This document shows positions 13,665 to 37,280 of a stretch of 44,042 nucleotides of DNA, in pieces. This stretch comes from Patescibacteria group bacterium (GTDB lineage: Bacteria; Patescibacteriota; Patescibacteriia; Magasanikbacterales; GWA2-37-8). Each line of letters starts with the position of its first letter. Position 1 is the stretch's first letter. The DNA is taken from assembly GCA_004321885.1 (NCBI GenBank), contig SCQK01000008.1, forward strand, positions 1-44,042. Reading direction: 5' to 3'. The notes under the pieces are model-generated. The model searched no databases and was not told the DNA's origin. It saw only the letters and a program-made list of their open reading frames with translations. A program made the translations under genes and the position numbers.

Positions 13665-13831
13665 AAATATTGTTCTGGATTCCGGTCGCCTGCGGCGACT
13701 GGAATGACAGAGTAATGTGGTGCAAACTCCCGACTGAATCGGGATCCCACGTTGCCCCGATTATATAATAAAGAAGGTTGTTTTGTCAAGATGTTGCGAA
13801 AAAGCGCGTTTTAGGTTAGAATATTGAAAAT

Positions 13832-20135: not shown

Positions 20136-21345
20136 ACGATTGCCATTCTTTTTTTAATTTCAAAAATTTGTCTTCGGCGATGGCCGCGCGGATTTGTTTC
20201 ATCAAATCCAAAAAGAAATGCAGATTGTGAATGGTGGCCAGGCGCATGGCCGAGAGCTCCCCGGCGTTAAAAAGATGGCGCAAGTAGGCGCGGGAATAAT
20301 GTTGGCAGGTGTGACAGGCGCAGTTTTTGTCTATCGGCTTGGCGTCGCTAGCGAACCGCGAGTTGGTGATGTTTATGCGATACCCCTCCCCAGCCCTCCC
20401 CTTATTAAGGGGAGGGAGAAAGAGCATGCCGTGGCGGGCCAAGCGGGTGGGGGCCACGCAGTCAAACATGTCTATGCCGCGTTCCACCACTTCAAAAATG
20501 TCCAAAGGCGACAGCCCCAGACCCATGCTGTAGTGGGGCTTGTCGGGCGGAAGCAGGGGGTAGACCCAATCCAAAATTTCTTTGGTCGCGGACATGTTGT
20601 AGCCGATAGATTCGCCGCCGACGGCGATGCCGTCAAAATCCATGGCGGAAATATGGCGCGCTGATTCTTCACGCAAGTCGCGGTGATTGGAGCCCTGGAC
20701 GATGCCGAAGAGATGTTGCCGATACCCCTCCCTCACCCTCCCCTTATAAAGGGGAGGGGATGATAGATGATATTCCAAACATCTTTTCGCCCATCTGTGC
20801 GTGCGTTCCATTGCTTCGCGCGCATACTTAGCATCAACATTGTCCGGCGCGCATTCGTCAAAGGCCATGATAATGTCCGCGTCCAGTTTGTGCTGGATTT
20901 TTATTGACGACTCGGGCGTGAAGCGATGCGTGGAGCCGTCTATGTGGCTTTTGAAGGTGACACCGTCCTTGTCTATTTTCGCCAAACGCTCTTTGCGAAA
21001 CTCCACCCCTTGTCCCTCCCCTAATAGGGGAGGAATTTGTTTGCCCAAACTGAAAACCTGGAATCCGCCGCTGTCGGTAAGCATTGGTCTGTCCCAATTC
21101 ATGAATTTGTGCAAGCCGCCCAGTTTGGCGACAATATCTTCGCCCGGGCGTAGATGCAAATGGTAAGTGTTTCCTAAAATTATTTGCGCGTTCAAATCGC
21201 GCAAATCAAAAGAATCCAGGGATTTTACGGTCGCTTGCGTGCCCACGGGCATGAAAGACGGTGTTTCAATGTCGCCGTGCTCGGTATGAATTACGCCCGT
21301 CCGCGCTCGGCTGTTTTTGTCTTGATGAAACGTTTCAAAAAACAT
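20122..21345 (-). CDS. tgt: Queuine tRNA-ribosyltransferase (tRNA-guanine transglycosylase). It carries three in-frame palindromic-element insertions.
   Basis: Full-length Tgt similarity including the zinc site CxCxxC…H (CACHTCQHYSRAYLRHL). The insertions encode [25 protein letters not shown] and PPLLGEGQG. Confidence 0.9.
   Translation of the reverse strand: MFFETFHQDKNSRARTGVIHTEHGDIETPSFMPVGTQATVKSLDSFDLRDLNAQIILGNTYHLHLRPGEDIVAKLGGLHKFMNWDRPMLTDSGGFQVFSLGKQIPPLLGEGQGVEFRKERLAKIDKDGVTFKSHIDGSTHRFTPESSIKIQHKLDADIIMAFDECAPDNVDAKYAREAMERTHRWAKRCLEYHLSSPPLYKGRVREGYRQHLFGIVQGSNHRDLREESARHISAMDFDGIAVGGESIGYNMSATKEILDWVYPLLPPDKPHYSMGLGLSPLDIFEVVERGIDMFDCVAPTRLARHGMLFLPPLNKGRAGEGYRINITNSRFASDAKPIDKNCACHTCQHYSRAYLRHLFNAGELSAMRLATIHNLHFFLDLMKQIRAAIAEDKFLKLKKEWQSYAKN
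20384..20421. repeat. P1 palindromic element, in-frame in tgt.
   Basis: cccctccccagccctcccc-ttattaa-ggggagggagaaag. Confidence 0.75.
20725..20770. repeat. P1 palindromic element, in-frame in tgt.
   Basis: cccctccctcaccctcccc-ttataaa-ggggagggga. Confidence 0.75.
21003..21034. repeat. P1 palindromic element, in-frame in tgt.
   Basis: ccctcccc-taata-ggggagg. Confidence 0.7.
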
Positions 21346-21494: not shown

Positions 21495-23711
21495 GTGTAT
21501 ATGATTGATTTTTCCAGCGACCTCAATGACGAACAATTAAATGTCGTTCTTAATGGCGACGGCCCGTGCTTGGTGTTGGCCGGAGCCGGCAGCGGCAAGA
21601 CGCGCGCCATTGTTTACCGTGCGGCTTATCTTTTGGAACAGGGCGTGAAGCCGGAAAATATTTTGCTCGTGACTTTTACCAACAAGGCGGCAGGGGAGAT
21701 GAAAGAAAGGGTGCGCGGACTCACCGGCAACGAGGGCTTGCCCTGGGCCGGTACTTTTCACAGCATCGGCAACAGAATACTGCGCCACCACGCCATGGCT
21801 TTGGGTTACATGTCCAATTTTACGATTTTGGATTCCGATGACAGCGAGTCATTGATAAAAATTTGCGCGAAAGACTCCCACCCCCCCTCAATCCCCCCCT
21901 CGGGCAGGGGGGGAGGATGGACCGGTGGTAAATTTCCCTCGGCCGGTAATTTGCAGGCGATAATCAGCTTTTCTCGCAACGCGGAAATGGCGCTTGCTGA
22001 AGTGTTGGAAACGCGCTGGCCCCAGTATGAGATGTGGGCCGACCCCCTGGCGGAAATCGCCAAGGAATACGAAAAAAGAAAATTACAGGCCAACGCCATG
22101 GATTTTGACGACTTGCTGGTGAACTTTTCGCGTTTGCTAAACGACCCGAAGATTTTGAAAAAATATTCCGGGCAGTTTCAATATATTCTGGTTGACGAGT
22201 ATCAGGATACGAATAAAATTCAGGCGTCCATCGTGAAAAAATTGGCCACCGAGCACGGAAATATTTTGGTCGTTGGCGACGACGCGCAAAGCATTTATTC
22301 TTTCCGCGCGGCCGACATAGAAAACATCTTGCGTTTTGAAAAAGATTTTCCCAAAGCGAAAATTTTCAAGCTGGAAACCAATTACCGCAGTAGCCAGGAA
22401 ATTTTGGACGTGGCCAACAACGTCATCGCCAACAATCCAAAACAGATAAAAAAGGAATTACATACCCCTCCCCAACCCTCCCCTTATAAAGGGGAGGGAG
22501 ATAGCGTTTCCTCCCCCTTTATAAGGGGGAGGTTAGGTGGGGGTGTCAAGCCCGAACTGCATCCGAAAATTGACCAAAGCGACGAGGCAAATTTCGTGGC
22601 CGAGAAAATCGCTTCGCTGATTCGCGGCGGAGTGGAACCGACCGAGCTGGCCGTGCTTTTCCGCGCGGCGCATCACAGCCAGCAATTGGAGCTTGAACTA
22701 ATGCGCATAGGCATTGATTACGATTATCGCGGCGGCCTGCGCTTTTTTGAACGCTCGCACGTGAAAGACGCCCTGGCCTACTTGCGCATACTGAACAATC
22801 TGGCCGACACGACCGCCTGGCTGCGCGTGCTTTTGTTTGAAGACGGCATCGGTCCGGTGGCGGCCGGCAAAATCGTGGATTATATAAGGAAGGTGGAAAA
22901 CGTGGAAGAAGTGGCCAAGGCCGGAGAGGTTTTGGGCGACAAAGCGCAGACGGGCTGGAATAATTTTTTACAAATTTGGAACAGCTTGCTGAATGTGGGG
23001 CCGGGCAGTCCGGCGCAACTGGTGGAGGCGATTTTGGCTTCGCCTTACCGCGATCGGCTGGAAGACGATTTTGGCAACGGCAACCAGCGGGCCGAAGATT
23101 TGAAACAGCTGGCGATTTTCGCGCGCAAATACGAAAAGCTGGATGACTTTTTATCCGAGGCGGCTTTGCAAGAGGCGTTTAGCATGCAGAGGAAAAAAGA
23201 AAGCGCCAGCAAAGCGCACGAGGGAAAAATTGTTCTTTCTACTATACATCAGGCCAAGGGGCTGGAGTGGTCCGGCGTGTTTGTGATTAATTTGCTGGAC
23301 GGGCAGTTTCCCAACGAACGCGCTTTGCGGGAAAACGGCGGGCTGGAAGAAGAGCGGCGCTTGTTTTATGTGGCGGTTACCCGCGCCAAAAAATATTTGT
23401 ATTTGTCGTATCCGCTGGCCGGCCCGGCCCGAGGCGGACAAAGCGGGGGCTGGGGAGACAGCGCGTCCGCGCCGAGCTCGTTTTTGGGTGAAATCAGTCC
23501 GGATTTGCTGGAAGATAGTTCGCTATTGCTTAAGCCGAGTTCGGTTTTTGATTTCTCTTCCCTTGCTAAGGGGAGAGATAGTGAGGGGTCGATCACATAC
23601 GTGGACGACCCGGATGCCGAGACCCGCCCCCACACCAAAGATTTTGGTGTGGGGGCCCGTCCCTTCCGCTTCAAACCCGGCAGTTTTTTGCGCGACGTGG
23701 GAGATTTATAA
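21495..23711 (+). CDS. uvrD: UvrD/PcrA/Rep-family ATP-dependent DNA helicase. It carries four in-frame palindromic-element insertions.
   Basis: Walker A GAGSGKT and helicase motifs across the length. The start is a GTG at 21495 or an ATG at 21501. Confidence 0.9.
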   Translation: MYMIDFSSDLNDEQLNVVLNGDGPCLVLAGAGSGKTRAIVYRAAYLLEQGVKPENILLVTFTNKAAGEMKERVRGLTGNEGLPWAGTFHSIGNRILRHHAMALGYMSNFTILDSDDSESLIKICAKDSHPPSIPPSGRGGGWTGGKFPSAGNLQAIISFSRNAEMALAEVLETRWPQYEMWADPLAEIAKEYEKRKLQANAMDFDDLLVNFSRLLNDPKILKKYSGQFQYILVDEYQDTNKIQASIVKKLATEHGNILVVGDDAQSIYSFRAADIENILRFEKDFPKAKIFKLETNYRSSQEILDVANNVIANNPKQIKKELHTPPQPSPYKGEGDSVSSPFIRGRLGGGVKPELHPKIDQSDEANFVAEKIASLIRGGVEPTELAVLFRAAHHSQQLELELMRIGIDYDYRGGLRFFERSHVKDALAYLRILNNLADTTAWLRVLLFEDGIGPVAAGKIVDYIRKVENVEEVAKAGEVLGDKAQTGWNNFLQIWNSLLNVGPGSPAQLVEAILASPYRDRLEDDFGNGNQRAEDLKQLAIFARKYEKLDDFLSEAALQEAFSMQRKKESASKAHEGKIVLSTIHQAKGLEWSGVFVINLLDGQFPNERALRENGGLEEERRLFYVAVTRAKKYLYLSYPLAGPARGGQSGGWGDSASAPSSFLGEISPDLLEDSSLLLKPSSVFDFSSLAKGRDSEGSITYVDDPDAETRPHTKDFGVGARPFRFKPGSFLRDVGDL
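21877..21920. repeat. P1-variant palindrome, in-frame in uvrD (it encodes SHPPSIPPSGRGGGW).
   Basis: cccaccccccctcaatcccccc-tcgggca-gggggggagg. Confidence 0.65.
22465..22545. repeat. Two tandem P1 elements in opposite orientation, in-frame in uvrD (they encode PSPYKGEGDSVSSPFIRGRLGGGV).
   Basis: Copy a at 22465-22502 and copy b at 22509-22545. Confidence 0.75.
23555..23590. repeat. P1 element (CTCTC variant), in-frame near the uvrD C-terminus (it encodes SLAKGRDSEGS).
   Basis: ctcttccc-ttgctaa-ggggagag…gagggg. Confidence 0.65.
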
Positions 23712-25135: not shown

Positions 25136-27496
25136 ATGCAAGAATCACGGCACTTAGAGTTTTTATTGGAAAGAGCTGGGATGCACGAAATGGAACGGCT
25201 TTTTGAAAAAGCCAAGCGGGATGTTTTGGATTTTTTGAATACGCCATATAAAGATTATGTTGAGAAATTGGACGATCAACAACCCGGCATACAATTTTTG
25301 CACAGCTCTGCTATTTTTGACGATTTTGAGAAAAAAATAAAAAATGTAATTGAAAAAGACCCGTCGCGTTTAAAAGTTGGCGCCATTAATTTTCTAAAAT
25401 TTTTATTGTTGAATGACAAAGCGGATGATTCACGAATTCCGCCAATTTTTGAAGATGTTTTCGTGAATTTTTATGACGATTCCGATACACCGACGCAAAA
25501 AACTTATCGGTCGTATCTTTACGAAAAAATAATAAAAGTTCTGATGAAGTTGAAAGGAAGCGATGCCGCTGTTGTAGAATGTCTGAAAGATATTGATTCA
25601 GTTGTATCCGTTAGCTTAATTGAGGATTTGCCACATGAGAAAGGCCGAGCGTACAAAATGTATAAGGGAAAATTTAATAAAGACATAAGCCCAGAGCAAT
25701 TTGACGTATTAAAACAAAGAAGACAAAAACAAATTGATGAAGGTGATATAGTGTATCGCGAGGATGCTTACGAAGAAACAGACATTGCGAATATAAATGA
25801 TGATAATTATAGAGTATATTATGATGAAGCATTTGAGGGGGAATTTTATGACGAAGAGGAGTATACATTTCCCAAAAAAACTGCTTTTAGGACGTGGAAC
25901 AAAAAGCAGGAAGTTGACCCGGTGGTCATTGACTATATAATTGAAAGCATTAGAACTGCTGAAACTGATTTTCGTGAAAATATTGATTTAATTTGTGAAA
26001 TTTTAAACAAAGACGCGGCGCGCGCCGGCAAAAAGTTGATGGAATTTGTCCAGCAAGAACAAAATCCGGTAAAAAAGTTAATCGCCACCAAGGTTTTATA
26101 TCGCCTGGAGTTCGGAAAAGTGGGAATGTCCGAAACAGGGTTGCGTTATTTGGACAAGCAGTTTGATTTGGGGGCGTACAACAATTCGGAAAATTTCGCG
26201 CATCGTCTTACGGGCGACGGCAAAGTGGGAATTTTTGACAAAAACAAACAAGCGCTCGGTTATTTCCAGTTGCACGGTCTGGATTCGCCGGAGCAAAAAT
26301 TAAAAGGTGATGTTTTGCGGTTCAGTTACGAGACATTGTTTCACCCCAAGCCGGGTGAAACGTCGAAAGAGCGCGCCGAGCGGGAGAAAATTTTGGAAGA
26401 ATTCAAGCAGAAATATTTTGACACTTATCTGCGGCAGGAAAAAGAAAAAGGAACCGGCAAGAGTTTTTATGAAGAAACCGGCGTGATGTTTAACAACTTA
26501 AGTTTTCCGGAACAGGGCTGGTTTTTGTGGTCTGTTTCGCATGCGAGCGAGGCGGATAAAAAACGCGCGATGGAGTTTATAAAAAAATATCGCGAGCCCG
26601 GGTTTAAGACGTTTTTATCGTTGGAACACGGGCAGGAAGGCGGGCGGGATATTTTGACTATCGGCGAAAATTTGGAACAGAAAACAGCCGAAGCGGTATT
26701 TCAAAAATATGGGCGGATAGTTGAAGCGACAAAGTCCATTGGCGGTTACATTGAGGCGCGGTTTGGCAAAGGGAAAAAATACAGCCAAGAGGACACGGAC
26801 AGAATTGTTGACAATCTGTTGAAAAGAGGGCAAAACTTACTTGCCGACACGGCCGATGAGATAGAAAAAGGCAAAGTAAAAGGCGAGATTATTTCCGAGA
26901 AATTGATGGAGAAGTTAAATTGTCTCCATGTGGATTTGCTGTTGTTCGCCAGCGCCTTCAAAGTATTTTCAAAAGATAAAAAAGAAATAAAATTTTCTGA
27001 AATAGAAGGAGTGGAACTGATTAGCAAGGACGCCAATGAGCTTGGAGAGCCGGAAAAAGAAGAAATGCGTAGAATTTTTATTGGCAACAGAAAAGAAGAG
27101 AAAGAGGAGTTTTCTGCGGAATATTTGGAAGAGCGGTCTAAACAATTTGATGAATCTGACCGCAAATATTATATCTTAAAAAAAGACGGCAAAGTCGTGT
27201 CATTTGCACGTTTCAACGAATTGCCGAACGGCAATTTGTATGTTTCTTTTATAAATACGGTTCCTGAAATAAAGGGCCATTCTATCGGTACCGCTTTTTT
27301 GAAGGTGGTTTTTGACCGAGAAACAACTAGTAGAGACGTAGAACTTAAAGTGCGCGTAGATAATCGCGTCGCCAAAAATTATCAAACAGATTTTGGTTTT
27401 AAAATAGTAGGTGAGCCGTTTGTTGATAAAAACGGGAAAAAGTATTTTAGGATGGTTCGGGAACCTTTGCGGGCGCGGCAGGAGAAGGCCGCATAG
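25136..27496 (+). CDS. Large hypothetical protein of 786 aa, AT-rich, with a C-terminal GNAT-like acetyltransferase fold.
   Basis: C-terminus …KVVSFARFNELPNGNLYVSFINTVPEIKGHSIGTAFLKVVF…VDNRVAKNYQTDFGFKIVGEPF…. By eye the GC content is lower than in neighbouring genes. Confidence 0.55.
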   Translation: MQESRHLEFLLERAGMHEMERLFEKAKRDVLDFLNTPYKDYVEKLDDQQPGIQFLHSSAIFDDFEKKIKNVIEKDPSRLKVGAINFLKFLLLNDKADDSRIPPIFEDVFVNFYDDSDTPTQKTYRSYLYEKIIKVLMKLKGSDAAVVECLKDIDSVVSVSLIEDLPHEKGRAYKMYKGKFNKDISPEQFDVLKQRRQKQIDEGDIVYREDAYEETDIANINDDNYRVYYDEAFEGEFYDEEEYTFPKKTAFRTWNKKQEVDPVVIDYIIESIRTAETDFRENIDLICEILNKDAARAGKKLMEFVQQEQNPVKKLIATKVLYRLEFGKVGMSETGLRYLDKQFDLGAYNNSENFAHRLTGDGKVGIFDKNKQALGYFQLHGLDSPEQKLKGDVLRFSYETLFHPKPGETSKERAEREKILEEFKQKYFDTYLRQEKEKGTGKSFYEETGVMFNNLSFPEQGWFLWSVSHASEADKKRAMEFIKKYREPGFKTFLSLEHGQEGGRDILTIGENLEQKTAEAVFQKYGRIVEATKSIGGYIEARFGKGKKYSQEDTDRIVDNLLKRGQNLLADTADEIEKGKVKGEIISEKLMEKLNCLHVDLLLFASAFKVFSKDKKEIKFSEIEGVELISKDANELGEPEKEEMRRIFIGNRKEEKEEFSAEYLEERSKQFDESDRKYYILKKDGKVVSFARFNELPNGNLYVSFINTVPEIKGHSIGTAFLKVVFDRETTSRDVELKVRVDNRVAKNYQTDFGFKIVGEPFVDKNGKKYFRMVREPLRARQEKAA

Positions 27497-28289
27497 GCGG
27501 CAAAGAATTCCAAATATATTCAAATAACGAGCGTTGCATCTGCGCTATATTTTTATCTTCAATGATGACTCCGATTTGTTGTTCCTCGGCAAGCGTGGAA
27601 TAACTGATGGTGTCGTTGTAAATTTGCATCCCAGTTTTGAAAGGATTTAACGCTTGCGGGATCAAACGCACTTCAAGCAAACGTGAACTCGGCGGCAAAT
27701 TTTTATATCTTTCCCTCGTAAATGGAGTATCAAGAGAGATTTGTTTTTTGTGAATTCCCAGTTCAATTCTTTTTTCAACATACTTTTTGTTCATTTCGCC
27801 TCCGTATTTAACCAAAGCTTCCATATCAATAAAAGTGTAAATTTCGCCTTTGGCTTTTAAAGAATCAAAAGTAACTTCTTTTATTCCTTCGGGACCTTCG
27901 TAAAATTTCACCCCGGGTTTGTGGTGGGCCAGGCGGTAGCTGGATTTAAGGTCGCCCAGCACGTCGCCGAGCATGGCTTTTTGGCGCTGGATTTCCTTTT
28001 CCTGGTCGGCCACAAAGTCCTCTAACTTTTCGGGCGGGGCGGCGTTGTACATGGTTTTCTTGCTTTTATCTCCTGCGCCGGGCTTTTTTTCGGTGGCCAA
28101 ATCAGACGCGATAAGGTTGTCCAGCACATAGTAGAGCATGGTGCGGGAAAAGTTGGTTTGCTGGCGCAGCTGGGGGATAGTGGCGTCGGGCGTTTTGAGC
28201 AAAACCTCATATAGCAAGGCCTCGTTTTCGCCCAGGCCCAGCTCTTTCAGGGTATTCTGGATAGTGGTATTTTGGTTAGCTTTCTGCAT
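27447..28289 (-). CDS. TrmB-family transcriptional regulator (N-terminal wHTH plus a C-terminal effector domain).
   Basis: …LGLGENEALLYEVLLKTPDATIPQLRQQTNFSRTMLYYVLDNL…. Convergent 50-nt overlap with the 786-aa gene. Confidence 0.6.
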   Translation of the reverse strand: MQKANQNTTIQNTLKELGLGENEALLYEVLLKTPDATIPQLRQQTNFSRTMLYYVLDNLIASDLATEKKPGAGDKSKKTMYNAAPPEKLEDFVADQEKEIQRQKAMLGDVLGDLKSSYRLAHHKPGVKFYEGPEGIKEVTFDSLKAKGEIYTFIDMEALVKYGGEMNKKYVEKRIELGIHKKQISLDTPFTRERYKNLPPSSRLLEVRLIPQALNPFKTGMQIYNDTISYSTLAEEQQIGVIIEDKNIAQMQRSLFEYIWNSLPPMRPSPAAPAKVPEPS

Positions 28290-28444
28290 ATTATTGACAT
28301 TTTTTTAGCTGTATAAAGCCATTATAGCACACTTTTAGATATTTGTCAAGAGCAGATTGACATATTTAGGCATTTAGAATAGAAATTGGCTTGGCTAAAA
28401 TTAGCCAAAAAAGAAAAAATAAGGCGGAAAGTGAGGCGTACCCC

Positions 28445-28473
28445 TTGACATATTTTAAGATATATGCTATAAT
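28445..28473 (+). promoter_or_regulatory. Near-consensus sigma70 promoter: TTGACA, a 17-nt spacer, TATAAT.
   Basis: TTGACA at 28445-28450 and TATAAT at 28468-28473. A weaker TTGACA-type promoter lies at 28357-28385. Confidence 0.6.
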
Positions 28474-28479
28474 GCTCTG

Positions 28480-28691
28480 TTAAGCTGGAAAATCTGAAAA
28501 AAGGGCTGAATAAGCACAAAGGGCTTAACAAACAGGGTGTCATTCTGAACGAAGTGAAGAATCCCTGTCGCACATTTCAATACAAATGGCGGATGACAGA
28601 ACCTGTGGAGGAGAGACCACGGGCGGACACAAAGCCAATTTTCTAAAAGCAATAGGGCCTCTCTCCAATTTGGATAGAGGCCCTTTTCGTT
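28480..28691 (+). ncRNA. Candidate small RNA of about 210 nt, bounded by the consensus promoter and an intrinsic terminator. Identity unknown.
   Basis: No ORF. It contains a P6-like internal hairpin (cagggtgtcattctgaacgaagtgaagaatccctg). Confidence 0.3.
28655..28691 (+). terminator. Intrinsic terminator gggcctctctcc-aatttg-gatagaggccc followed by ttttcgtt.
   Basis: An 11-12-bp stem with one mismatch, followed by a T-tract. Confidence 0.55.
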
Positions 28692-28734
28692 AGCGATGAG
28701 GCGAGCCGCTATAGCGGCAAGCCCATCCGGCTAA

Positions 28735-28752
28735 CGATCCGCCTTTGGCGGA
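28735..28752. repeat. P4 mini-hairpin (gATCCGCC-TTTGG-CGGAT).
   Basis: Further copies at 32303-32319 and 37217-37233. Confidence 0.5.
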
Positions 28753-29100
28753 TGTTGCTTACGCGGATGAGGGAGAGAACTTATTCATTTCCTCATCCGT
28801 TGAAGCAATGTGAACAACAAAGTTTCAACGCCACTTGTCGTGGATTGTACATTAAAATGCTCCTCCGCGAGTCCGGGCGACCGGTCCGCGGGTTGCGAAA
28901 AGCATCGTCTGGTTATTCGTATGAGTAGGAGAGAGTCCTACCGATAACAAGATGATTTCTCTGTTTGCTCCCGCCCAAGGCGGGAGACCGGGCGGAGAGT
29001 GTCCCACGATGCGGCGAAAGCCGAGTCCGGGCGCTCGCGGTCCGGCTATATGCCTACAGAGACATATAGTACCGAGTGCGCCCTAAATCCGATCACAACT

Positions 29101-29125
29101 GTCATCCTGAATTTATTTCAGGATC
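29101..29125. repeat. P5 hairpin (GTCATCCTGAA…TTCAGGATC).
   Basis: Second copy at 37111-37135. Confidence 0.5.
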
Positions 29126-29166
29126 TCCGTTCGGTCGGAGGCGGGGCAGACGATCCCATATCATTT

Positions 29167-29203
29167 CCTCCCCCTTAATAAGGGGGAGGTTAGGAGGGGG
29201 TAA
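29167..29203. repeat. P1 palindromic element.
   Basis: cctccccc-ttaataa-gggggaggttaggaggggg. Confidence 0.65.
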
Positions 29204-29320
29204 ATTGGATCGCCTGCCTCGCCGGAATCCTTGGAGAGAAAAGCGAGTCGGCGCTATTGAGAGAGTAGGCCTGGAGCACTTTGACAATTTATCCACTAAA
29301 GCTGGCAACTGTCGTTTTTT

Positions 29321-29354
29321 CTCCCCTCAATAAGGGGAGGACGAAGGAGGGGTG
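29321..29354. repeat. P1 palindromic element.
   Basis: ctcccctc-aataa-ggggaggacgaaggagggg. Confidence 0.65.
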
Positions 29355-29515
29355 TTGTCATTTTTAGTGGCGCCACCATGGTGGTGGCGAAAGAAAGGAG
29401 GTGCGCCATGAAGCGCACCTATCCGAGTGGGTTTCTTTAGATAAAAAAAAGAAACCCCGCGTTGTGGCTGGCATCCACTTTAATCACTGCCCGCGGCAGA
29501 CGCAGTTCTGTCGCG

Positions 29516-29575
29516 CCAACCAAACCTCGGCGGTTCACCAAGTAGCCGGGGAAGTCCTCGCGTCAGCGAGGGCGA
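29516..29575 (+). repeat. Direct repeat DR1 (…ttcaccaagtagccggggaagtcctcgcg-tcag-cgagggcga).
   Basis: Nearly identical to DR2 at 30041-30097; the two are about 520 bp apart. Confidence 0.6.
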
Positions 29576-30040
29576 GCGTGGCTCCGACGCCACTCGGACA
29601 ACGGTGCTGGCCGGAACAAACCAGCCGCGAGCCGCGATGCTAATATCTCCTATAAGTCGGCTGACATCCGACGAAGTGGAGAGAATGAGGCATCGCGAGG
29701 GGCGCGATAGACCCCGAAGGTGCCACACCATGGAGATGTGGTGTGGTGAGGAGACTCGTCTCCTCGGGTTCGCCCGAGGAGACGAGGAGGCCGTGCTTGT
29801 GGCGGCCCTGGCTGTCTTCGCGTTCGCGGAGGCGGCGGGGCTGCCGCGACCCAGCTTGAAGCTGGGTTGGATGGGGTGGAAGTATCTCACCCTGTCCAGC
29901 ACGCAGGAGGTGCAGCGACAGCTGCAGCTCCTGCGGGAGCACGGCCCCGCGGGTTACTGGGTGGCAGCCACCCGGTAGCCGGGCGGTTGGTGGACCGCTG
30001 TCAAAAACCACCCGTCTAAGCGCTCAATCGCTTAGACGCC

Positions 30041-30097
30041 CACCAAACCCCGGCAATTCACCAAGTAGCCGGGGAAGTCCTCGCGACGCGAGGGCGA
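30041..30097 (+). repeat. Direct repeat DR2.
   Basis: See DR1. Confidence 0.6.
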
Positions 30098-30238
30098 TAG
30101 TCCGGTCATCCGACCGGACAAGCGCTCGGAGGCGAACAAGCACATGTTCGCCTTTCCGATTACTCTTTTCACCGCAATAGTGCGGTGGAAGGAGTTGAGG
30201 AAAACAAAAAACAGCTTGCAAGCGCGAGCTGCCTTTAG

Positions 30239-30314
30239 TGGTGGACCCGACGGGAGTTGAACCCGTTCCTCTACTTGTCAATGGTAGCATGCTAACCGTT
30301 TACACCACGGGCCC
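30239..30314 (-). tRNA. tRNA of 76 nt with an encoded CCA. The anticodon loop is AUUGACA, so the apparent anticodon is UGA (nominally Ser), but it has a short type-I variable loop. The isotype is uncertain.
   Basis: Minus-strand cloverleaf. Acceptor GGGCCCG/CGGGTCC, D-arm GTGT-AAACGGTTA-GCAT, anticodon arm CTACC-ATTGACA-AGTAG, T-arm ACGGG-TTCAACT-CCCGT, discriminator A, then CCA. A TATAAT about 20 nt upstream of the 5' end. Confidence 0.7.
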
Positions 30315-30550: not shown

Positions 30551-31411
30551 ATGAAGAGCGCCCAGAAGAAGGGGCCGCCGAGCCCCTCGTCTCGGCACAA
30601 CGACCTCGCCTCCCAACACAGGGGGGTGAAGAGCGGAGGAGCCCTCCCCTCCGGCGACGCCAAGTCGCCGAAGAGGAGGCCCTCCAAGATCAACAGCCGC
30701 CAGTTGGAGGGAATGGAATTTCAGTATCTGCTCCTTGACGGGCTTTGGGTCAAATGCAAGCAGTTTGGCTTAAGCGAGCGCAACAATACGGTTCTGCTCT
30801 GCGCCCTGGGCATCACCAAAGAGGGCAAAAGAGAGATCGTTGGCTTTATGACGAGTGACGCCGAGGACGCCGAAAGCTGGGGGCAGATGCTCGCCAATTT
30901 GAAAGAGCGCGGATTGAATAAGGACAAACTCGAGCTGGTCATTGCCGACGACAACGCCGGACTGGTTTCAGCCGTAGGCCACTATCTGCCGGGGGTTAAA
31001 TTACAAAAGTCCGAATGAAGTTATTAAAGAAGTGGTGCTGTGAAAACTTGACTTTTTAGCCACAAAAAGCAAATTGCCGCCGATGTCAAAATTATCTATC
31101 AGTCCAACAGTAGAGAAGAGGCCACCGAGCGGATGAAACAATTCGCCAGGAAGTGGTACGTGGCCGAAGAGAAAGCCGTGAACAGTTTGCGCTTCAATTT
31201 TGAAAAAACATTGACCTACTTTGATTGGCCGCCCGACACCTGGAAAAAAATCAGGACCACCAACATTTTGGAAAGAGAGTTCCGGGAAGTCCGGCGTCGC
31301 ATCAAGGTGTTTGATAATTCGTTCAACGACCAAAACAGCTTACTCCGATACGGCAATTCCATTTTTGACAATCTTAATAATCATTACCCTGCAAAAAGTT
31401 ATACACACTAA
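30551..31411 (+). pseudogene. Degraded IS256-family (Mutator-like) transposase. The N-terminal third is missing and there is a frameshift or deletion between about 31018 and 31090.
   Basis: Fragment 1 is …FQYLLLDGLWVKCK…REIVGFMTSDAEDAESWGQMLANLKERGL…LVIADDNAGLVSAVGHYLPGVKLQ. Fragment 2, in a different frame, is …KQFARKWY…FDWPPDTWKKIRTTNILEREFREVRRRIKVF…. Confidence 0.65.
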
Positions 31412-35107: not shown

Positions 35108-35742
35108 TGTCCAACCGACAACAAGGAGGTGCGTCGTGACCTATCACGGCAGTTCGTAAGGCAGGGTTAAACTTGCAGGAGAAATGGCCGCGCTCCTTTA
35201 CTGAAGGTCGGCCCATGGTCTGCTGATAGCCATGTATCCCGTATGACCATGTGGGTCAAGGAAAGTCAGCTCGGGTCCTGGCGCGAAAGCGATAGTCCAG
35301 GAGCCTCACCAAACGAGGCAAACATTGCGAACAGGGAGTGATTGAGCCCCTCTCGTGATGATTGATCCGAAAGGATCAAGCCGTGAAAAACACGGCAATC
35401 AATCTCGGGTGCGCAGGCGCGGGCCAAACGCATCTTAAAGTTCGGTTCGACCACGGTGTCGAACAAAGTAAGGGCTGGCCAAATCATTGGGTGCCCAGAC
35501 CCGCGACCAAGGCGAAAGGAGGTGAAAACCGCGTGCGTTCCACACGCATTTGCCTTGGATCCGGCGATCCTACTCGAGGAGAAAAACGAAGACAGCGGCC
35601 GGAGCTGTCTACCAATGGGACAATGCGCTCGGGGAAAGGGTTCTTGATTGCACTACAGTCAAGAACCCACCCCATCCTTGCTGATAAAATTTTTTCAGCA
35701 GAGATGAGGTTTGAAATGGAATGCCAAGGAAAGGAGGAAACA

Positions 35743-36207
35743 ATGCCTTGGCTACTGAAGAATGGTGAAGTGGTCGTGAATCGTTACCAGAGTCACCTCC
35801 ACTCCGACGTCGAGCGCTTGCTCCCGGAAGCGCTCGGCCAGATTGACCCGGCCGGGAGAGGGTTTCTCGTCGAGGAGGTGGTCTTTGACCGCGTCGTCGG
35901 CGAGACCACCTGCGTCGCCACTGGGCCTGGTGACCAGGCCGTTTACGCGAAGCGGCCCAAGCGGTTCGGGCCGAGCCGGTTCGTGAAGAACCGTTCGCCC
36001 GAGCCGTGCAACAGCGTCGTCGTCATCCTGAAGGCGGGTGACGGCGAGTACGTTCTGGTCACTGCCTTCGTGGGTACACGGCCCGAGCCGGAGCCCTGGG
36101 ATCGGAACGCCACCGAGAAGTCGGTGGAGTTCTGGGCCTCGCACGCCCTGATTTGGGGCAGCGAGCCCGTGATCCCGGGCACCGAAACGGACAAGTGCCC
36201 GTGGTAG
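35743..36207 (+). CDS. Hypothetical 154-aa protein, GC-rich.
   Basis: Strong RBS (aaggaggaaaca-ATG). It is the last gene of the GC-rich island. Confidence 0.4.
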   Translation: MPWLLKNGEVVVNRYQSHLHSDVERLLPEALGQIDPAGRGFLVEEVVFDRVVGETTCVATGPGDQAVYAKRPKRFGPSRFVKNRSPEPCNSVVVILKAGDGEYVLVTAFVGTRPEPEPWDRNATEKSVEFWASHALIWGSEPVIPGTETDKCPW

Positions 36208-36340: not shown

Positions 36341-36390
36341 CCCCTCACCAACTCTCCCCTTATAAAGGGGAGAGAGAATGAGGGTAAAGG
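36341..36390. repeat. P1 palindromic element at the right edge of the GC-rich island.
   Basis: cccctcaccaactctcccc-ttataaa-ggggagagagaatgaggg. Confidence 0.6.
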
Positions 36391-37001: not shown

Positions 37002-37245
37002 ATATTTGTCAATACTTAACAAAGATATAAACATGGCAGTTCTTGACACTTTTTCCCCCTTTCTATATACTATTGCCAAGAACGTTACCCCGAGTAATCG
37101 GGGCACCCGAGATCCTGAAACAAGTTCAGGATGACAGGGAACTCGTGGCTGAGCTTCATCGTTCAGCTTTTTGTTAACGACAGAAATTTAAGAATTAAAT
37201 TTCTTGTCAGTTAACAATCCGCCTTTGGCGGATATTCATTATTTA

Positions 37246-37280
37246 CCCCTCCCTGCCCTCCCCTTATTAAGGGGCGGGGA
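37246..37280. repeat. P1 palindromic element immediately upstream of rpsL. Its right arm may serve as the SD.
   Basis: cccctccctgccctcccc-ttattaa-ggggcgggg; the ATG follows 13 nt later. Confidence 0.65.

Follow-up and report, generated by a model that had tools for sequence, protein, structure and literature searches.

What is transcribed from a perfect promoter that points away from a TrmB-like regulator gene into DNA with no recognisable gene? We addressed this question in a 44,042-bp contig (SCQK01000008.1) of a Patescibacteria-group metagenome-assembled genome, which was analysed over its whole length and is hereafter called the window; the adjoining TrmB-like protein is NCBI EPN28_02600. 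An earlier note, made from the letters of the contig, had proposed an orphan transcription unit of about 210 nt, running from a TTGACA-17-TATAAT promoter to an intrinsic terminator, which would be a small regulatory RNA or would lead into a longer structured RNA. Comparison with related loci supports this proposal, in that the same strand remains conserved and covarying further downstream: the unit is probably the 5' module of an uncatalogued family of structured non-coding RNA (ncRNA), ~0.7-0.85 kb in length, found divergent from a trmB-like gene in a Magasanikbacteria-like clade of Patescibacteria. This reading builds on what was observed directly: the motifs of promoter and terminator, conservation among relatives, helices that covary, the lack of an Rfam match and the lack of a conserved open reading frame (ORF).

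The promoter is of the sigma-70 type and lies on the plus strand at 28445-28473, with TTGACA at 28445-28450, a 17-nt spacer ending in TGc, and TATAAT at 28468-28473; it scores 12/12 against the -35/-10 consensus and carries the extended -10 TG in addition, so that the perfect promoter of the earlier note was found as described. Perfect TTGACA-N16-18-TATAAT sites occur three times in the 44-kb window (0.02 expected from shuffles), the other two being the divergent TrmB promoter (28349-28321, minus strand) and a site at 13760-13789 (minus strand); therefore the RNA promoter, which had been ranked first in the window, ties for best and is not uniquely best. Its direction away from the divergent TrmB gene (27447-28289, minus strand; Pfam TrmB, E=4.5e-9) was also as claimed.

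Relatives were gathered through TrmB homologs (42-70% identical to the TrmB of the window), whose contigs were then fetched, because a search of phage and plasmid DNA was empty (no blastn match in either collection) and a GTDB genome scan with TrmB had a distant archaeal sequence as its sole match. Locus L008 was obtained by scanning metagenomes for the paired motifs GGAGAGAGG..CCUCUCUCC, a pattern search that returned this one true homolog and five chance matches; the other loci came from TrmB homologs. We assessed 14 lineages, each with at least 140 nt of DNA upstream of TrmB and all but two with at least 300 nt. Conservation in relatives, on which the earlier note had made its proposal depend, was found in 11 of these lineages (the window, L003, L004, L005-7, L008, L014, L016/17, L020-24, L026/27, L031 and L032), where the unit is likewise divergent from TrmB; it is absent in L015, L025 and L029/30. 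The promoter geometry is invariant in 12/12 RNA-bearing loci, with TTGACA, exactly 17 nt ending in TGn, TAWAMT, 5 nt and then GUUAAGC or a close variant, and this layout persists despite diverged surroundings. As the -10 element always stands 5 nt from GUUAAGC, the transcription start in the window was placed at about 28479 (G28479).

The short unit would thus extend over 28479-28691 on the plus strand (~210 nt), from the putative start at GUUAAGC to the U-tract. Its 213-nt transcript has a predicted folding energy of -65.7 kcal/mol (z = -3.5), better than 199/200 shuffles. At its 5' end is a hairpin, P1 (28479-28529), in which GUUAAGC (28479-28485) pairs with GCUUAAC (28523-28529), and which forms in six to seven of the 11 lineages, with compensatory variants such as GUUACGC/GCGUGAC in L008 and GUUGAC/GUCAAC in L003. 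There follows an A/U-rich block, CAUUUCAAUACAAAU (28572-28586), the counterpart of the conserved CUUUACAAC-AUAUAUA of the relatives and present in 10 of the 11 lineages, and then a hairpin that we call HpA (28602-28623), with a CCUGUGG/CCACGGG stem and the loop A-GGAGAG-A. The GGAGAG loop is invariant, and the stem sequence differs in almost every lineage. Conservation upstream of the terminator is confined to P1, HpA and the A/U-rich block, and between HpA and the terminator lies a variable linker (30-45 nt). The terminator (28655-28691) has its stem GGGCCUCUCUCCAAUUUGGAUAGAGGCCC at 28655-28683 and the U-tract UUUUCGUU at 28684-28691; the stem pairs GGGCCUCU with AGAGGCCC and, further in, UCCA with UGGA, at -21.6 kcal/mol on its own. 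The hairpin with U-tract that the earlier note had placed some 210 nt from the promoter is therefore present, and a simple terminator scan missed it because of its internal mismatch. Terminator stem and U-rich tail are kept in 10 of the 11 lineages.

Could such a unit be a chance promoter-like match next to repeat debris, or a small unannotated protein gene? The genome is indeed rich in small hairpin repeats, and the unit holds a 35-aa ORF with an ATG start at 28586-28693. However, the plus-strand ORFs in the unit reach only 30-35 aa and have no translated similarity in the homologous loci, which agrees with the original reading of the stretch as free of ORFs, and the ORFs of at least 30 aa in 28.35-29.42 kb gave no significant tblastn match on the RNA strand against the homologous loci. 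A coding function of the unit or of the RNA downstream was rejected, since no ORF has translated similarity in relatives. Moreover, 11 lineages have the unit in the same place and show compensatory changes in it, and the comparative data contradict this explanation to a degree that makes it scarcely credible.

The compensatory changes were assessed with a covariance model of HpA plus terminator (R1), which has a single hit in each locus, that in the window being 28591-28693 (64 bits). HpA and terminator occur together in all RNA-bearing lineages but one. In the R1 alignment, which comprises eight distinct sequences and was fitted to the model, 82.5% of cells are paired and 8/15 pairs have changes on both sides (5/7 in the HpA stem, 3/8 in the terminator stem), a covariation score that was reached by 0/500 shuffles and by no slid control. 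We take this signal as supportive rather than conclusive for a conserved HpA and terminator.

Conservation does not stop at the U-tract; it runs on along the same strand for another 460-630 nt, to ~29154-29322. The core of this long RNA (28692-29154, plus strand) was delimited by nhmmer and MAFFT homology to L003, L005, L008, L014, L020, L026, L031 and L032, and its elements follow one another on the plus strand. A helix of CGGAUGAGG/CCUCAUCCG followed by GUUGAAGCAA occupies 28763-28808; among the lineages a long covarying hairpin appears as CGAUGAGG/CCUCAUCG as against CGGUGAGG/CCUCACCG, GACGAAGGA/UCCUUCGUC or AGUCGAGGA/UCCUCGACU, usually with GUUGAAGCAA next. The GGAGAGAG hairpin comes at 28925-28941 and has CGGCGA after it, with further hairpins at 28946-28965 and 28968-28986; after CGGCGA the relatives have a covarying hairpin (e.g., GAAGAG/CUCUUC, GAUGUG/CACAUC, GACAGAG/CUCUGUC). 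A hairpin capped by a GNRA tetraloop (~29011-29023) and the conserved block CGCUCGCGGUC (29032-29042) precede a hairpin with a different sequence in each lineage (29046-29069), which stands between CGCUCGCGGUC and GUAGUACCGAGUGCG. Then come GUACCGAGUGCG (29069-29080), a helix at 29080-29147 leading into CAGUCGGU, and CAGACGAU (29147-29154). In the helix at 29080-29147, 10/12 pairs are compensatory, 87.5% of cells pair and 0/500 shuffles reach the covariation score. The junction sequences CGCGGUC, GUAGUACCGAGUGCG and CAGUCGGU are near-invariant, and G-U pairs in the downstream region fit only the RNA strand. An optional 3' extension (29155-29322, plus strand), which has an inserted CCUCCCCCUUAAUAAGGGGGAGG repeat (29164-29189) and ends close to the conserved block CUUUGACAAUUUA (29279-29291) and to a T-run (29315-29320), occurs also in L003, L005, L020 and L031 but not in L008, L026 or L032. 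The earlier note had let a longer RNA range over 28.7-30.2 kb: an extension downstream exists, but it ends at ~29.15-29.32 kb, and 29.45-30.2 kb is unrelated. This GC-rich stretch is shared with no relative among the homologous loci, is not part of the RNA and sits between it and an opposite-strand tRNA-Ser (30239-30314); L032 has the same order of RNA and tRNA without the GC-rich insert.

Two loci show that the short unit and the long RNA are separable parts. In L004 the short unit is intact, and directly 3' of its U-tract lies a 5'-truncated copy of a foreign GC-rich gene (the full version is at 35744-36207 of the window); that the short unit was kept although the long RNA was replaced suggests that it is selected on its own. 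In L016, conversely, no internal terminator interrupts the RNA, which reads as a single stretch of ~390 nt ending in a GGAGAGAG-type hairpin and a terminator. The first of these loci fits a stand-alone, trans-acting small RNA (sRNA) of 210 nt that would pair with its targets through its CCUCUCUCC tract or its A/U-rich block, with the downstream RNA as a separate, adjacent gene. The unit has what is expected of an sRNA gene (consensus -35/-10 with proper spacing, a GC-rich hairpin with U-tract, no conserved ORF), its terminator and U-tract are conserved, and the terminated fold has the minimum free energy everywhere. Against this, a promoter scan of the window found no promoter-like site between the terminator and the long RNA, conserved sequence begins right after the U-tract, L016 is without the internal terminator, and no convincing complementary target was found in the contig, which holds neither a meaningful complement of the A/U-rich block nor extra GGAGAGAG sites near start codons. 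We therefore regard a separate sRNA as unlikely, and favour a 5' module continuous with the long RNA.

How might the module and the long RNA be connected? The 5' arm of the terminator, CCUCUCUCC (28658-28666), is complementary to the GGAGAG(AGG) of HpA, and the RNAalifold consensus structure is this long-range GGAGAGAGG:CCUCUCUCC pairing, with nine pairs, all invariant. An alternative pairing of 7-10 bp is present in all terminator-bearing lineages and covaries only in L020 and L026: in L020 both partners have changed together (AGAGACC with GGUCUCU, the second partner there lying in the terminator loop), and in L026 the GGAGAG:CUCUCC-type pairing is kept through a G-U. The ends of the transcript, its read-through, a switch and whatever role the RNA has in the cell are inferences. 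Transcription would start at about 28479; by default the nascent RNA would fold into HpA and the downstream terminator and stop at 28684-28691, yielding the short RNA of ~210 nt. Polymerases that read through would produce the highly structured RNA of ~0.7-0.85 kb, ending at ~29154-29322. Control may lie in the choice of GGAGAG(AGG) or the rest of the terminator as partner of the CCUCUCUCC arm. It is conceivable, although we advance it only tentatively, that the GGAGAG:CUCUCC pairing is an antiterminator that opens the terminator with the aid of a helper; as another candidate, it could be a loop-to-hairpin tertiary contact of the finished RNA.

Several points weigh against this account. No lineage has a fold of lower energy than HpA plus terminator, and the alternative, when imposed, is less stable by 0.5-21 kcal/mol; termination should therefore be the default and, since the alternative pairing is never the minimum-energy fold, the antiterminated state would need a factor. 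GGAGAG and CUCUCC are nearly invariant, so that covariation for their pairing comes from two lineages. P1 is missing in three to four lineages (it is absent in L026 and L032), and the 3' end of the long RNA is approximate, at about 29154-29322. In addition, some 11 distinct sequences are at hand, and because every one was retrieved through the TrmB neighbour, both the distribution and the linkage to TrmB are biased by sampling.

Does the RNA belong to a known family? In the Rfam scan that the earlier note had suggested (Rfam 15, gathering thresholds, window and 10 homologous loci), tRNA alone reached threshold. Permissive scans gave sub-threshold matches to internal ribosome entry sites, microRNAs, PyrR and Thr-leader, which were rejected as noise, and inspection lent no support to RNase P, transfer-messenger RNA, signal recognition particle RNA, 6S, T-box or group I/II introns. 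We found no description of this RNA in the published literature. The best sub-threshold match was the PyrR binding site (RF00515), with 23 bits against a gathering score of 54 and E = 0.25-0.96. PyrR attenuators share with the unit a hairpin with a conserved, purine-rich apex, a linker and an intrinsic terminator, the 3' half of the hairpin being complementary to the 5' arm of the terminator, and the 23-bit similarity stems from this generic hairpin-hairpin-terminator layout. They differ from it in that non-coding RNA follows here and pyr genes are absent; the PyrR consensus also differs from the motif UGGAGAGAGG of the present RNA.

A protein-binding decoy or attenuator would nevertheless account for some features: an RNA-binding protein would attach to HpA and to the GGAGAGAG hairpins, in the manner of PyrR or CsrB/RsmZ, and its binding would decide termination. 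An invariant loop on a covarying stem, the further GGAGAGAG hairpins in the long RNA and the PyrR site as best sub-threshold similarity are in line with it. The shortfall of the PyrR score speaks against it, as does the number of such hairpins, only 2-4 per RNA. CsrB/RsmZ sponges likewise have repeated GGA hairpin loops and a Rho-independent terminator, but they carry many GGA hairpins on a simple string, whereas here the 2-4 GGAGAG hairpins are part of a complex multi-helix fold. Furthermore, the conserved neighbours are a DNA-binding winged helix-turn-helix regulator and a GNAT protein, and no candidate RNA-binding protein was found. We consider a decoy improbable, and return to the reading of a terminator-closed module heading a large RNA.

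For such an arrangement there are precedents: a B12 riboswitch gates EutX/Rli55, and a c-di-GMP-II riboswitch is coupled to a group I ribozyme. In the proposed read-through scheme the locus resembles them, as a 5' terminator element would decide on a functional RNA downstream; unlike them, it has no recognisable aptamer or ligand, and the core of the leader is small and variable. With more than 500 nt and multiple covarying helices, the long RNA resembles the large structured ncRNAs OLE, ROOL, GOLLD and the raiA motif, a likeness and not a membership. It shares with them a length of 0.5-0.9 kb, many covarying helices, near-invariant junctions, GNRA caps, a narrow phylogenetic range and the absence of an ORF. 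It differs in that it matches no Rfam model, is divergent from trmB-GNAT, has a terminator-closed 5' module and was not found in phage or plasmid collections. A phage or plasmid origin was rejected, viral pattern scans having given nothing or chance 15-mers without conserved context.

A cis-regulatory leader, that is, a riboswitch or attenuator for protein genes downstream, e.g., of the P-loop/Csx3 type, was also considered. In L004, L032 and L020-24 the RNA is indeed followed by P-loop genes of the same orientation. In most loci, however, the next element is the 0.5-0.9-kb structured non-coding RNA, and in two an opposite-strand tRNA; the L004 junction truncates the adjacent gene, the window has no P-loop/Csx3-type gene downstream, and the P1-HpA core is short and variable, with no conserved junction resembling a binding pocket. 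This makes a cis leader very improbable. The P-loop protein itself (~200 aa, MKxVxCGPPxSGKS) occurs in three lineages (minus strand in locus coordinates: L004 4655-5293, L032 123-710, L020 685-1944) and is absent in the window; in L020 it is fused to a CRISPR-associated Csx3 domain.

On its other side the unit faces a well-conserved gene context. Each of the 13 loci read, RNA-less ones included, has upstream of TrmB a palindrome, TGTCAA-N7-TTGACA, that overlaps the TrmB promoter and is likely an autoregulatory TrmB operator; in the window (28344-28362) it lies outside the RNA and covers part of the -35 element of this divergent promoter. A 31-nt inverted repeat is formed by the two divergent promoters; it was rejected as a separate element because both are near-consensus with A/T-rich spacers. 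Gene order is kept throughout the loci, TrmB being followed by a convergent, slightly overlapping GNAT protein of ~790 aa, except in L029/L030, where the neighbour (582 aa) has no Pfam hit. In the window the 786-aa GNAT gene (25136-27496, plus strand) and the TrmB gene overlap by 50 nt at 27447-27496, and L004, L014 and L026 have the same overlap. In the AlphaFold2 model of the large GNAT protein (mean predicted local distance difference test score, pLDDT, 78.5) the C-terminal domain is the only part that matches the PDB (NatD/RimI-like protein N-terminal acetyltransferases), and the N-terminal ~620 aa, well modelled too, match nothing there; relatives have a SAM-methyltransferase domain in place of the C-terminal GNAT domain. 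These structural matches give no link to the RNA, and the GNAT neighbour was set aside as a functional clue.

The locus is also studded with small dispersed hairpin repeats of three families. Copies of the first, GUCAUYC-stem-GRAUC, are at 28533-28567, 29101-29125 and 37111-37135 (minus strand). The copy at 28533-28567 (plus strand), a hairpin CAGGG-UGUCAUUCUGAACGAAGUGAAGAAUC-CCCUG to which the other two are related, is the P6-like internal hairpin of the earlier note: it exists, but as a lineage-specific insertion absent from all homologs, and no evidence of a group I intron accompanies it. The second family, CCCUCCCCUUAWWAAGGGGAGGG, has copies at 29164-29189, 29321-29340, 22480-22544, 20395-20414, 36355-36376 and 37257-37274, and the third, AUCCGCCUUUGGCGGAU, at 28737-28753 and 37216-37233. 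ORFs are not spared (there are copies in the UvrD gene at 22.5 kb and in an ORF at 20.4 kb), and in related loci the homologous RNA holds repeats of these kinds at different places. Repeats thus insert freely into the RNA and mark its dispensable positions; insertions are fewest in the versions of L032 and L008.

Beyond the RNA, a ~95-nt unit of three hairpins is present in two plus-strand copies (29508-29600 and 30031-30125) that are 83-90% identical, with z of -2.4 and -6.5; hairpins 1 and 2 are conserved, and hairpin 3 differs in sequence yet pairs. The two copies flank an ORF of 66% GC (29730-29978, ~82 aa, no Pfam hit); the unit has no Rfam hit and is absent from all related loci, and the pair could mark sites of recombination or be a regulatory RNA repeated within an inserted element. 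Beyond the tRNA-Ser lies a fragment of a Mutator/IS256-family transposase (30551-31018; 155 aa, profile positions 152-252 of 379). Further on, a GC-rich stretch of ~630 nt without a convincing ORF (35108-35743) separates a VWA-domain gene from a 154-aa gene with a strong ribosome-binding site (35744-36207), which is probably overcalled by the mechanical ORF 35362-36207 (TTG start). The region from 29.4 to 36.3 kb, with 50-66% GC in most 500-nt windows and with MoxR and VWA genes, looks like foreign DNA inserted beside the tRNA.

What, then, does the locus mean for these bacteria? Genomes of Patescibacteria (the candidate phyla radiation) are of ~1 Mb and have little spare DNA. Here up to 0.85 kb of non-coding DNA and a near-perfect promoter are kept across lineages whose TrmB proteins are 42-70% identical to that of the window. 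It is a serious possibility, although we would stop short of calling it probable, that the RNA represents a new class of large (~0.5-0.9 kb), ornate RNA specific to a clade of ultra-small Patescibacteria. Its promoter would then rank among the strongest of the genome, a built-in terminator would gate its synthesis by pairing of the 5' arm with the invariant GGAGAG loop, and the conserved junctions CGCGGUC..GUAGUACCGAGUGCG..CAGUCGGU would mark a catalytic or ribonucleoprotein core of a sort not described before. The short, terminator-closed module with its simple, mutable GGAGAG/CUCUCC pairing offers an experimental handle on such an RNA. New classes of large structured RNA seldom come to light, and study of those already known has tended to uncover unusual biology.
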